Both the position numbers and the translations under genes were made by a program. A model generated the notes under the pieces. That model did not search any database, had not been told where the DNA came from, and was given only the letters and a program-made list of their open reading frames with translations. This document shows, in pieces, positions 871 through 6,526 of a stretch of DNA of 41,446 nucleotides (position 1 is the stretch's first letter; each line of letters begins with the position of its first letter). The stretch lies in the IMG/VR virus record IMGVR_UViG_3300024275_000016, positions 1 to 41,446 of that record; one strand, 5' to 3'. This DNA is from a virus. Taxonomy: Duplodnaviria > Caudoviricetes.

Positions 871-980
871 TGAGTTGGACAAAATATCCATAATGTCCAA
901 CTCGGGCTTTTAGGCGCACGAGGAATCAACGGGTTACAGACACGTCTTTGGCGCTATCGGTCACTGTAATGTCCAACTCG
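871..980. other. putative tyrosine-recombinase core site (13-bp arms, 6-bp spacer) plus a downstream direct-repeat half-site
   Basis: GAGTTGGACAAAA-TATCCA-TAATGTCCAACTC at 872..903; TAATGTCCAACTCG repeated at 967..980; lies directly downstream of the recombinase gene. Confidence 0.65.
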
Positions 981-1012: not shown

Positions 1013-1576
1013 CTATCGCCAGTCCGAGTGCCGGCCGGCGAACTGCTCGCGCCTCTTATTGGTGACCTGGACGTAGATCATGGTGTTCTGGATGTTGGAA
1101 TGTCCCAGATGGTCCTGGATGGCCACAATATCGGTGTCATGGGCAGACAGGTAGGTCCCACACGAATGCTTCAGCGCATGCATGTGGGCCCTCTCAGGAG
1201 CGATGTGCGCTTTCGCGCAGTAGTCCTTCATCAGCTGGTCAAGGCGCGATCGGGAGACGCGGCCGTGCTGCCGGGTGGTGAAGAGCGGCCCTGGCGCCAT
1301 GCCCCGTATCCGGAGCCAGGCGCTGATCGCCAGGCGCTCCGACCGCACCAACGGGAACTCGCCCGAGTTCGATCCCTTCAGCCGGCGGATCATGATCCGC
1401 TGGGCCTTCTCCCGGTAGTCGCCAATCTGGATCATCCCCAGCTCGCTGGCGCGCAGGCCACGGTGGTACGCCAGGCGAAACATGGCTGTATCCCGGGGCG
1501 ATTTGATGACCGCGAACAGGCGATCGATCTCTTCCTCGGTCAGGTATTCGGGGATTGTCTTAACCTTGCGTTTCAT
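1013..1576 (-). CDS. tyrosine recombinase, FimB/FimE/Xer-like, catalytic domain only
   Basis: 187 aa; RDTAMFRLAYHRGLRASE (Arg), RRLKGS (Lys), HMHALKHSCG (HxxK/R), LGHSNIQNTMIY (His, Tyr). Confidence 0.92.
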   Translation of the reverse strand: MKRKVKTIPEYLTEEEIDRLFAVIKSPRDTAMFRLAYHRGLRASELGMIQIGDYREKAQRIMIRRLKGSNSGEFPLVRSERLAISAWLRIRGMAPGPLFTTRQHGRVSRSRLDQLMKDYCAKAHIAPERAHMHALKHSCGTYLSAHDTDIVAIQDHLGHSNIQNTMIYVQVTNKRREQFAGRHSDWR

Positions 1577-1880
1577 CCTTCAATTCTGCTCGTTCTTTGG
1601 ATTCTCCCTCTTGCAGTTGCGCCGGACCAAGGGCTGGAGCCAACTCCGCCAGCAATGGCCTGAGCTCGGGACCCTTCATGCCCGAGTGGCGCGCGATCGC
1701 AAATTGCAGCGATAGCAGCTTCAACCGGTTCGCGTCATTGCCGTTGATTCGGGACAGTACCTTCAGCGCCATATTCGCTCGCCCATTGGCGTTGTCGCTG
1801 CCCGTTGTAAAGTAATCCTTGATTGACTCGAGCGCCTGGGGCGCCAGATCATTCAGTGCTTTCGATGCTTCGGTATCCAT
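1560..1880 (-). CDS. hypothetical protein between array and recombinase
   Basis: 106-aa ORF; ATG directly follows the last array repeat, which supplies AGGAG; overlaps the recombinase start. Confidence 0.7.
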   Translation of the reverse strand: MDTEASKALNDLAPQALESIKDYFTTGSDNANGRANMALKVLSRINGNDANRLKLLSLQFAIARHSGMKGPELRPLLAELAPALGPAQLQEGESKERAELKDETQG

Positions 1881-2340
1881 TCTTCAGTTCTCCTTTTCCT
1901 TGTATCGAATGCTCCTTCAGTTCTCCCCGCGTCTGATTGCACACCGCCTTCAGTTCTCCCCAAATCGATTGCTCCCGCGCGCGACGATCGAGCATCGGGA
2001 AAATCTGGCGACCTTCAGTTCTCCTCGGCTATTCCCCAAATCGATGCTCTCTCAGTGCGCCGCAGCGACCTTCAGTTCTCCTCCGCGTCTGCTCACGACT
2101 GCGCCCTTCAGTTCTCCTCGTTCCGTTGTTCCAAATGCTACAACGCGCACGGATTCTCCCATGCGAATGAGATCAAGCCCTTCAGTTCCCCTCGCCAAAT
2201 TCACAACGCAGCGCGACCTTCAGTTCTCCTCGCCCTTATCCGCTCTGAGGACCTTCAGTTCTCCCCGCCCTTCCCAGAAAGGAGGAACCATGCCTTCAGT
2301 TCTCCTCAATTCTTGCAGTAGCACCACCTTCAGTTCTCCT
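1881..2340 (-). CRISPR. atypical CRISPR-like mini-array, 11 short repeats (minus-strand consensus RGGAGAACTGAAGG)
   Basis: CCTTCAGTTCTCCY on + strand starting at 1881, 1914, 1947, 2012, 2069, 2105, 2179, 2217, 2252, 2293, 2327; intervening unique segments mostly 19-27 nt (three longer: 43, 51, 60 nt); begins 2 nt after the stop codon of the Cas12f-like gene. Confidence 0.8.
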
Positions 2341-2342
2341 CG

Positions 2343-3461
2343 CTATTCCCCGAATCGATGCTCCAGCTCGCGGATCGCCGCGCCGGCCTTCGTGGCCTGC
2401 TTCCGTTTGCGGTCGATTTCCCGCTTAACGGCACGCTCCGTTCCGGCATCCGCCAGGTCTGCCTCCGTGTGGACGTTCATTGCCAGCATATCGCCTTTAT
2501 CCTTCAGCATTTGTGTGAAGCGAAACGCCGGCCAGTCCGCATTTTCCAGCCCAACCACTGTCAGATCCCCTATCCCCTGCCCCTTCAGCCAGTCGATAAT
2601 CTCTCGAGACCACTGGTGCAGCCAATTCGTGAGCCAGCCGTCCCAGGTCATGTTGGCGAGCGTCTGACGCTTGCTGCGGGCTGAACCCTTGCGCCGGCCG
2701 ATCTGACACAACACCCGGCGCCGTATCGCATCCCACTCCTGTTTCCGCTTCAATAGCGTGACCAGCCGGCCGGTGAAGTCCCGGGACTCGAATTCCGTCC
2801 GCAGCCACAACCTATTGTTTTGTCCAATTGGGCCCAAGGTGGCCTTACGCTGGCCGAACGTGCCAAATTGTACCGCTATGGGGTAGGCCAGCCGGACTAT
2901 GACCTGGCGCCGTTCCGGCTTGACGACGATCGCGGCCTTGCGAATCGATATCTTCCCGGCCGCCATGTCATCCAGCAGGGGGCCCTGCCAGTCTTTGACT
3001 GTCCCGCACGCGAGGGGAATTTTAAGCCACGCCCCGTCCTCACATTTCGCTGCCTGTGCCTGTAATTCAATGACATAGCGGTCACCGTCTCGAGTCAGAC
3101 GGACCCCTGATTCCTTCCGGTCCTTGTTGCCGCGGATGGTGAGGGCGGCTGTGGTTTTCCACTCAGGGAGAGGGGCGCCGGCCAGGATGCGTTTGGCGTG
3201 GCGCCGCCAGGTCATCAGAACTTCGCGTTCTGCGGCCGTATAGGCATTGCTGCCCAGTTCCATCTTCTCGTCGTGCCGGATCCACCGGGTCACATCGTGA
3301 GGGATGTTTTTGGTGGGATCGACGCAGAGATTTTTGGATTCAGCCCAGAGCGCGCGCAGGAACAGGTTCCGGTAGCGTGCTGCCTGCCATGAGAGGTCCT
3401 TGAGGCGCTGGAAGAGTTCCCAGTCTCCCCGCAGATCGAGTTTAACGGCGAGCACGCGCAT
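2343..3461 (-). CDS. Cas12f/TnpB-like RNA-guided protein, predicted nuclease-dead and C-terminally truncated
   Basis: Blocks resembling Cas12f1 (recalled alignment): DWELFQRLKDLSWQAARYRN, LGSNAY..WRRHAKRILAGAPLPEWK, LLDDMAAGKISI..VIVRLAY, NWLHQWSREIIDWLKGQGIGDLTVVGL, WPAFRFTQMLKDKG. RuvC-I GIDLG reads LGPIG, RuvC-II MEDL reads VVGL, no CxxC ribbon or RuvC-III. Start ATG 3461 (372 aa) or GTG 3485. Confidence 0.8.
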   Translation of the reverse strand: MRVLAVKLDLRGDWELFQRLKDLSWQAARYRNLFLRALWAESKNLCVDPTKNIPHDVTRWIRHDEKMELGSNAYTAAEREVLMTWRRHAKRILAGAPLPEWKTTAALTIRGNKDRKESGVRLTRDGDRYVIELQAQAAKCEDGAWLKIPLACGTVKDWQGPLLDDMAAGKISIRKAAIVVKPERRQVIVRLAYPIAVQFGTFGQRKATLGPIGQNNRLWLRTEFESRDFTGRLVTLLKRKQEWDAIRRRVLCQIGRRKGSARSKRQTLANMTWDGWLTNWLHQWSREIIDWLKGQGIGDLTVVGLENADWPAFRFTQMLKDKGDMLAMNVHTEADLADAGTERAVKREIDRKRKQATKAGAAIRELEHRFGE

Positions 3462-3489
3462 ACGCTCATGCTCGCCGTCTGCCACTGCC

Positions 3490-3625
3490 TCTGACGCTGT
3501 ATGCGGCACCACGACCGGAGAACTGGGGCCGTCGCCGTTGCCGGCGTGAAGAGTGCCTCGTGCGAGATTACGAGGAGATTCAGCCGAAGCAGTAGAATCG
3601 GACATTCCAATCCAACTGTACGCTA
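3490..3625 (-). ncRNA. putative tracrRNA/scaffold RNA
   Basis: Intergenic; minus strand has CAGTTCTCC (3525..3517) complementary to repeat GGAGAACTG and CTTCA (3551..3547) complementary to repeat TGAAG; several hairpins including a GCAA tetraloop; ends approximate. Confidence 0.6.
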
Positions 3626-6272: not shown

Positions 6273-6332
6273 ATCTTAGCATCCGTGCGCACGGATGGCA
6301 AGAGAAATCTGTACGCACGGATATGTTATTAT
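6273..6332. promoter_or_regulatory. divergent promoters with palindromic operators
   Basis: Leftward TTGCCA-17-TAAGAT enclosing perfect palindrome CATCCGTGCGCACGGATG (6280..6297); second copy ATCTGTACGCACGGAT (6307..6322) next to rightward extended -10 TGTTATTAT. Confidence 0.75.
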
Positions 6333-6338
6333 CGGGGC

Positions 6339-6500
6339 ATGTCAGATGAAGAGAAGGACGCCGCTGCGCAGAGCATGGCCGCGAAACGGTGGGCGAAGAC
6401 GACGCAGAATCAGCGGTCTGAAGTTGCCCGCAAACTAAATGAGGCGAGATGGGGGAAAAAGAAGAAGACGAAGAGCAAGAAGAGTACTACCGGCACTTGA
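6339..6500 (+). CDS. small basic protein, candidate repressor/regulator
   Basis: 53 aa MSDEEKDAAAQSMAAKRWAK..ARWGKKKK; flanked by operator copies; function inferred from position. Confidence 0.6.
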   Translation: MSDEEKDAAAQSMAAKRWAKTTQNQRSEVARKLNEARWGKKKKTKSKKSTTGT

Positions 6501-6526
6501 CTACCGTGCGCACGGACTGCTAGTTT
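6497..6526 (+). promoter_or_regulatory. sigma70-type promoter with operator in the spacer
   Basis: TTGACT-18-TAGTTT with CCGTGCGCACGG (6504..6515) between the boxes; ATG at 6533. Confidence 0.65.

Follow-up and report, generated by a model that had tools for sequence, protein, structure and literature searches.

Truncated CRISPR repeats at the gene junctions of a Cas12f-like phage module predicted not to cut DNA

Introduction

When a CRISPR repeat directly touches the start codon of a gene, it may serve as a ribosome-binding site (RBS), act as a regulatory switch, mark the boundary of a mobile cassette, or simply be a scar. This question is raised by a locus of a soil phage, IMG/VR record IMGVR_UViG_3300024275_000016 (Duplodnaviria; Caudoviricetes). 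The window, i.e., the whole stretch of DNA analysed (41,446 nt), is a complete tailed-phage genome of 41 kb, with portal, terminase, and capsid genes and overlapping ends. An inverted repeat lies at the assembly end (positions 1-61), and palindromic operator-like repeats are located at 6281-6322 and 6496-6517, around the divergent genes 6266/6533. On the minus strand, an effector gene (3605/3461..2343) is followed by the array, a 106-aa open reading frame (ORF), and a recombinase gene. The features considered in this study are as follows.

872..903, no strand assigned: 32-bp palindrome, likely the recombinase's own binding or recombination site (comparison with L012 and L093)
1013..1576, minus strand: tyrosine recombinase, 187 aa, catalytic domain only (Pfam PF00589, E 1e-29)
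1560..1880, minus strand: conserved 106-aa partner, predicted four-helix bundle of no known family (locus comparison, structure model)
1577..1592, minus strand: degenerate twelfth repeat, within the partner's last codons (14-mer and 16-mer matching)
1881..1894, minus strand: repeat 11, touching the partner ATG (match 13/14; Shine-Dalgarno sequence AGGAG)
1881..2342, minus strand: array, 11 truncated repeats (14-16 nt) separated by spacers of 19-60 nt (repeat search)
2343..3605, minus strand: Cas12f-like effector without RuvC catalytic residues and zinc finger (Foldseek, motif columns, HMM alignment to Cas12f chains)
3485..3592, minus strand: predicted tracrRNA, about 110 nt (DNA conservation, covariation, repeat pairing)

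The genes flanking the effector are RecT, Gp157-like, HNH-like, partner, and recombinase genes. Since tnsB, tnsC, and tniQ are not among them, a type V-K CAST was rejected.

Results

Two repeats directly abut start codons

Repeat 11, AGGAGAACTGAAGA (1894..1881, minus strand), is followed directly, with no gap, by the partner ATG (1880). The degenerate twelfth copy, AGCAGAATTGAAGG (1590..1577, minus strand), matches the 14-mer repeat at 12/14 positions and the 16-mer repeat at 14/16, and the recombinase ATG (1576) is likewise next to it with no gap. The adjacency to both downstream start codons, reported in an earlier note on this DNA, was thus confirmed. Besides the array and copy 12, no repeat copy with fewer than three mismatches was found in the 41,446 bases on both strands. 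A null set of about 100 other Shine-Dalgarno (SD)-bearing ATG starts of long ORFs was compiled from the window and 11 related loci. Their best match to the repeat was 10/14, except for one unrelated start (L002:8604) at 12/14. The adjacency of copy 11 exceeds chance. By score alone, copy 12 is a marginal case, yet it is placed where relatives have a true repeat.

The proposal that the repeat doubles as an RBS fits the 106-aa gene, in which the AGGAG sits 9 nt before the ATG. It does not fit the recombinase gene: in copy 12, the AGGAG core has changed to AGCAG, which makes it a poor SD, a point absent from the earlier note. Also absent from it was a third junction, at which the effector stop codon (2345..2343) abuts repeat 1. 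Two of the window spacers are copies of the effector 3' end.

The effector is predicted to bind without cutting

The effector is 420 aa long from the ATG at 3605, and its folded core begins at the ATG at 3461. The structure model (pLDDT 79.7) shows the compact WED/REC/RuvC fold of Cas12f proteins (400-500 aa), and its top Foldseek matches were AsCas12f (E 1.8e-15, probability 1.0) and dCas12f 9n9c (1e-12). A comparison of 69 effector homologues revealed no intact RuvC D-E-D triad: the RuvC-I strand shows no conserved acidic position, and the column aligned to the RuvC-II Glu by HMM alignment is acidic in 10/69. The RuvC-III region and the zinc finger are replaced by a helix, and the last 120 aa hold 0-3 Cys in 69/69 homologues, with no C-terminal zinc finger. 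The effector thus has the features of a nuclease-dead, C-terminally truncated Cas12f. Because the RuvC-I and RuvC-II acidic residues are not conserved and a helix stands in place of RuvC-III and the zinc finger, it is predicted to be a binder and not a cutter. No effector relatives were found in GTDB genomes or cultured phages.

A predicted tracrRNA is nested in the effector gene

The effector coding sequence has a disordered 5' extension, and within it lies the predicted tracrRNA, whose 5' and 3' ends pair; residues 1-42, encoded by the same codons, have a pLDDT below 50. This region is kept at the DNA level across effectors that are just 40% identical, and double-sided changes were seen in 12 of 31 predicted pairs among seven close loci. 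It contains two anti-repeats (3578..3571 and 3552..3547) that can base-pair with the two halves (5' and 3') of the short repeat and covary with its sequence. When 12 tracrRNAs were paired with 12 repeats, the cognate pair ranked first in 9/12 cases, second in two, in which it was beaten by near-identical sister repeats, and third in one. The repeat variants of the window array are mostly G-U-tolerated in tracr pairing. Computational covariation therefore points to a tracrRNA that would pair with the repeat. Rfam gave 0 matches, and the promoter search gave no useful signal. L012 has an additional array of seven repeats on the other strand, just upstream of the tracr region (L012:1701-1960).

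The 106-aa ORF is the conserved partner of the effector

A helical protein of 93-133 aa without Pfam or NCBIfam match is the conserved neighbour of the effector. The partner follows the effector in 22/22 distinct loci with enough downstream DNA, several of them near-duplicates; tblastn or a profile built from these same proteins recognised 20, and inspection added L126 and L129. The sequence of five other loci stops within the effector or the array. A search with the partner profile retrieved 95 proteins (clusters at 50% identity), 93 of which are 79-175 aa long, and 73 family members scanned against Pfam gave 0 matches. The partner model is a four-helix bundle (pLDDT 63). A fold search returned only generic helical bundles (best Z 8.5), and the Atlas matches were nameless. 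The effector-partner co-fold score of 0.00 is evidence neither way. The 106-aa ORF, and not the recombinase, is the module's real partner.

The recombinase is likely a passenger

The recombinase ORF overlaps the partner end by 17 nt, and its second catalytic Arg is a Lys (HxxK), as in 27/35 relatives. A further palindrome half-site lies near 967-983. The 32-bp palindrome occupies the same position in L012, and identical 10-bp outer arms are found beside the recombinase of L093, a locus without the CRISPR module.

The earlier note had tied the recombinase to the array. The link was tested in both directions and rejected. Of 15 effector loci in which the sequence extends 1.3 kb or more beyond the partner or the genome is complete, two (the window and L012) carry the recombinase. 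Conversely, neither effector nor partner occurs within up to 5 kb of the recombinase relatives at 33 phage loci (0/33; some flanks are shorter). The L012 recombinase (59% identical) starts without a repeat, and a 56-aa ORF stands between it and the array. Related contigs speak on both sides: in X10 (depth 3), the repeat 3' end stays at the recombinase ATG despite a 9-nt deletion, which favours a link, whereas the close recombinase of X9 has unrelated upstream DNA and the partner of X7 ends without copy 12.

These results bear on an integron-like arrangement, in which the recombinase would shuffle spacers and genes through the CRISPR repeats. Dead TnpB proteins with tyrosine recombinases are described in the accessible part of PMC10691335, repeat-bounded genes exist (the partner; an HTH gene in L001), and identical units occur in different half-arrays of L011 and L013. 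The 13/15 loci without recombinase, however, include shuffled short-repeat arrays and the complete genome G003, and the CRISPR repeats are asymmetric, whereas the recombinase family has its own palindromes of 28-32 bp. Despite the downstream position of the recombinase in the window and L012, we regard this arrangement as very improbable. Since repeats are found 3' of the partner in all nine related loci that show the region (L001, L005, L008, L009, L011, L012, L013, L035, and L129), copy 12 is best read as the presumed 3' boundary repeat of the partner, and the recombinase is likely a passenger. The idea of repeat-bounded genes, also raised earlier, held up: the partner is flanked on both sides in 8/8 related short-repeat lineages or loci examined.

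Short repeats invaded the junctions more than once

In the loci without repeats between effector and partner, the partner start lies -20 to +15 nt from the effector stop (11/11), with a 4-nt overlap in six. Most of these loci carry ordinary full-length repeats of 35-37 nt downstream. The gene arrangement indicates that effector and partner are translationally coupled where arrays are full-length. A conserved long hairpin leader stands directly before the full-length arrays of L002, L004, L014, L015, and L017-L019, between the partner and the first repeat. Unscored inspection of L002, L018/L019, and L020, which have full-length repeats, showed that the final repeat is degenerate and extends into the following start.

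The window's clade (support 100/99) shows short-repeat invasion of the junctions, and so do L035 and L129, which fall outside this clade; the invaded state therefore appears to have arisen at least twice on the midpoint-rooted tree. In the invaded lineages, the repeats have shrunk to 11-16 nt that pair with the tracrRNA, and eroding repeats are visible in L005 and L035. Units are inserted between tracr and effector (L009, L010, L035, and L129), between effector and partner, and 3' of the partner. Repeats often supply stop codons, and close partner homologues end in repeat-encoded residues; 9/69 effectors and 5/98 partners end in residues matching repeat-encoded ones. Identical spacer units stand after the partner in one of the phages L011 and L013 and before it in the other, indicating that units move between half-arrays. 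A 120-aa HTH-like gene lies between repeats in the effector-partner interval of L001 (L001:7403-7765).

A repeat forms the partner start region in four of the eight lineages with repeats before the partner; L007, which ends in the array, was left out of this count. The four are the window (13/14), L011/L013 (12/14), L035 (10/14, inside a recognisable full-length copy), and L129, in which an intact repeat lies 10 nt 5' of the partner ATG. L012 is borderline (9/14). In L001, L008, and L009, the partner start is not repeat-derived, and 29-32 nt of other sequence follow the last repeat. In the strain contigs of X2 and X10 (depth 2-4), the ATG is still next to repeat 11. Two contigs of X7 (depth 2-4) have an intact repeat whose 3' end, GGAGG, lies 5 nt before the partner ATG. 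The repeat-to-ATG spacing varies (0, -2, 0, and 10 nt; 5 nt in X7), as expected from repeated recruitment. The earlier note had proposed to check whether the junction is conserved in homologues: the repeat-at-start trait recurs in independent lineages, but it is neither obligatory nor fixed in its geometry.

Repeats are also dispersed beyond the module. In L001 (L001:2896-4520, G001), single near-perfect repeats occupy four successive junctions of a replication-region operon, 1.5-3 kb upstream of the effector. Two of these repeats contain the stop codon of the preceding gene, and the next gene begins 1-2 nt beyond them. Behind some of the L001 junction repeats stands a diverged copy of the end of the preceding gene. 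Other single repeats (G003:12025, G003:15989, and G001:5943) lie after stops or between genes and not at starts. At L077:6090 (G003:15989), 22 kb away from the module, an isolated spacer-plus-repeat has a 12-nt direct duplication on its flanks, which resembles the scar of an insertion. A pattern search for full-length repeats gave three single matches, the chance level. One repeat-pair scan gave 0 matches; another gave 50 stretches, with the effector on three contigs only and the rest being chance or simple repeats.

Ribosome-binding role, regulation, or scar

The strength of tracr-repeat pairing was calculated as simple duplex sums, with the protein ignored. On this scale, the two ATG-adjacent copies are the weakest tracr binders of the 12 copies in the window (-15.0 and -14.4 versus a median of -19.8 kcal/mol). 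The ATG-adjacent copies of L035 (-12.4 versus -24.7 kcal/mol) and L012 (-4.8 versus -17.6 kcal/mol) are weakened as well. In L001, two junction repeats are intact with full tracr pairing (-23.9), and the L129 copy is about median. Since ATG-adjacent copies mostly pair more weakly with the tracrRNA, SD recruitment is favoured over a regulatory switch. On balance, SD recruitment with partial escape from processing would explain most cases.

The rival view is that the junctions are regulatory: the tracr-effector complex would bind repeats over the RBS and stops, or trigger processing there, and so control translation or mRNA cutting of the partner, and sometimes of other genes, in an operon feedback. 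Such control is feasible, because repeat 11 retains 6/8 and 6/6 pairs with the two anti-repeats, and this pairing would cover the SD. The trait has appeared convergently in separate lineages, and the intact L001 junctions and the median L129 copy fit regulation better than escape; true regulation is most plausible in L001, with its near-perfect repeats at four successive junctions and full tracr pairing at the two stop/start ones. However, the weakened copies of the window, L035, and L012, the absence of the trait in 3/8 lineages, its unfixed geometry, and the dispersed repeats that are not at starts render regulation rather unlikely. We are similarly doubtful of its broadest form, in which tracrRNA and dead Cas12f would bind or process repeats over stops and RBSs, a single complex would both target rivals and set translation or mRNA cutting of its own genes, and the four-helix partner would represent a new class of Cas12 co-effector.

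A third view holds that the repeats are neutral scars, which reach gene ends by homologous or slippage recombination and survive where genes stay unbroken, their SD function being incidental. Local duplications flank several dispersed repeats, spacers copy neighbouring gene ends (window, L001, L035, and G003), the phage encodes a RecT-like annealing protein, and purine-rich repeats resemble any SD, as the single 12/14 chance match illustrates. This view nevertheless has to accommodate that, in the window, the partner gene, kept in 22/22 loci, has no SD-like sequence other than repeat 11 at working distance. Repeat 11 is therefore unlikely to be dispensable, and we consider pure scarring improbable.

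One spacer has a recognisable target

Among 205 spacers, one has a target in 1.4 Mb of related DNA: the related phage L018/L019 carries, in its replicative helicase gene and behind TTTC, a match of 30/32 nt to an L015 spacer. This single protospacer is the one candidate example of a T-rich 5' PAM. For the window's own spacers, no target was found in their own genome or in the 1.4 Mb of related DNA, and the spacers of two arrays gave no targets in phage or plasmid collections. A test of 11-nt seeds plus TT showed no seed enrichment (10/213, versus 4-12 of 141-161 in shuffles). The L015 match behind TTTC suggests that the module may serve cut-free interference between phages; from the same spacer case, a T-rich PAM would keep a guide composed of repeat plus gene start off the phage's own DNA.

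Discussion

The junctions are real and recurrent, and they are part of an undescribed dead Cas12f variant; the role of repeat 11 as the RBS of the partner is likely. The account that we on balance find probable, judged from sequence comparison, is a dead Cas12f module whose eroded repeats spread into gene junctions, with one repeat recruited as the partner RBS and the recombinase as a passenger. The full-length-repeat relatives show the first step, with the partner coupled to the effector stop and the array after it. In at least two lineages, repeats then shrank to 11-16 nt and units were inserted at the tracr/effector, effector/partner, and post-partner positions. Insertion may have broken translational coupling, so that variants with the last repeat as an SD at working distance were kept. 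The kept repeats, usually altered and pairing more weakly with the tracrRNA, would spare the start of the partner mRNA from being consumed as a guide. Copy 12 would be the 3' boundary repeat of the partner, next to which the recombinase gene may have replaced the downstream half-array; the recombinase is likely translated by coupling to the partner. Finally, the module would bind sites behind a T-rich PAM in rival phage DNA and block this DNA without cutting, with the partner as a co-factor.

Cas12m silences its targets without cutting; it is larger and is not known to use a tracrRNA. The effector family could be one of the 40 candidate subtypes V-U6 to V-U45 (PMC10691335, accessible part). 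The module resembles dCas12f-sigmaE, as presented in the available portion of PMC13472631, in its Cas12f fold, lost RuvC residues, C-terminal truncation, and dedicated neighbouring partner gene. The same portion mentions CRISPR-linked dCas12f without rpoE. The partner here is, however, a 106-aa four-helix protein and no sigma factor, and rpoE (sigmaE) was not found as an effector neighbour in the part of the ORFs scanned across loci. The guides differ as well: here an upstream tracrRNA with a multi-spacer array, borne by a phage; there a chimeric RNA downstream. Given the upstream tracrRNA and multi-spacer arrays, the guide type of dCas12f-sigmaE and TldR (a single chimeric RNA downstream, no array) was rejected.

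Cas12f1 proteins (AsCas12f, SpCas12f1) are the best structural matches, and further likenesses are a tracrRNA with two anti-repeats and, from one protospacer, a possible T-rich PAM. In contrast to Cas12f1, the present module lacks the catalytic triad and the zinc finger, has its tracrRNA inside the 5' coding region of the effector, and has repeats that are shortened to 11-16 nt and scattered between genes. A tracrRNA encoded in a disordered tail of the effector ORF is shared with Cas12n (10.64898/2026.03.27.714800, available part), but the tail is N-terminal here and C-terminal in Cas12n, which is an active nuclease. The inactivated TnpB with phage-integrase-like tyrosine recombinases in the accessible text of PMC10691335 likewise combines a dead TnpB-family protein beside a recombinase with inverted repeats, an association that is not conserved here (2/15; 0/33). 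Cas12r of Thermus Lalka phages (10.64898/2026.04.20.719267) is also a phage-borne type V module directed against other mobile elements; it interferes stand-alone, and the portion of that source at hand mentions neither a helical partner nor junction repeats.

The Start-Associated Sequences of Cluster K mycobacteriophages, asymmetric 13-bp repeats immediately upstream of starts, are proposed in the accessible part of PMC3203893 to act in translation initiation or regulator binding. The repeats described here differ in being CRISPR repeats with a covarying tracrRNA, which names a candidate regulator. Membership in that group, which calls for many copies per genome with nearly all of them next to starts, was rejected: 2/12 window copies are at starts, and a partial resemblance exists only in L001. 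The available part of a paper on standalone repeats (10.1101/2023.03.03.530964) does not mention translation, ribosome, or start codon. In the literature covered, largely outside subscription journals, neither the partner family nor CRISPR repeats at start codons were described.

The Cas12f-like proteins of these phages would thus form a family of compact binders that naturally do not cut, have an obligate partner, and keep their tracrRNA hidden in the 5' coding region. They may be of use as a small scaffold for DNA binding and for modelling conflict between phages. CRISPR repeats would have been co-opted as stop codons and RBSs, with erosion intermediates visible, and the repeat junctions provide a candidate case of RNA-guided control at translation starts that can be tested directly. 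The guides appear to be naturally minimal, and the tracr-repeat-spacer runs of L009, L035, and L129 resemble natural single guides. Such runs lie before the effector start at L009:440-710, L035:10001-10215, L129:7578-7990, and L010:1506.
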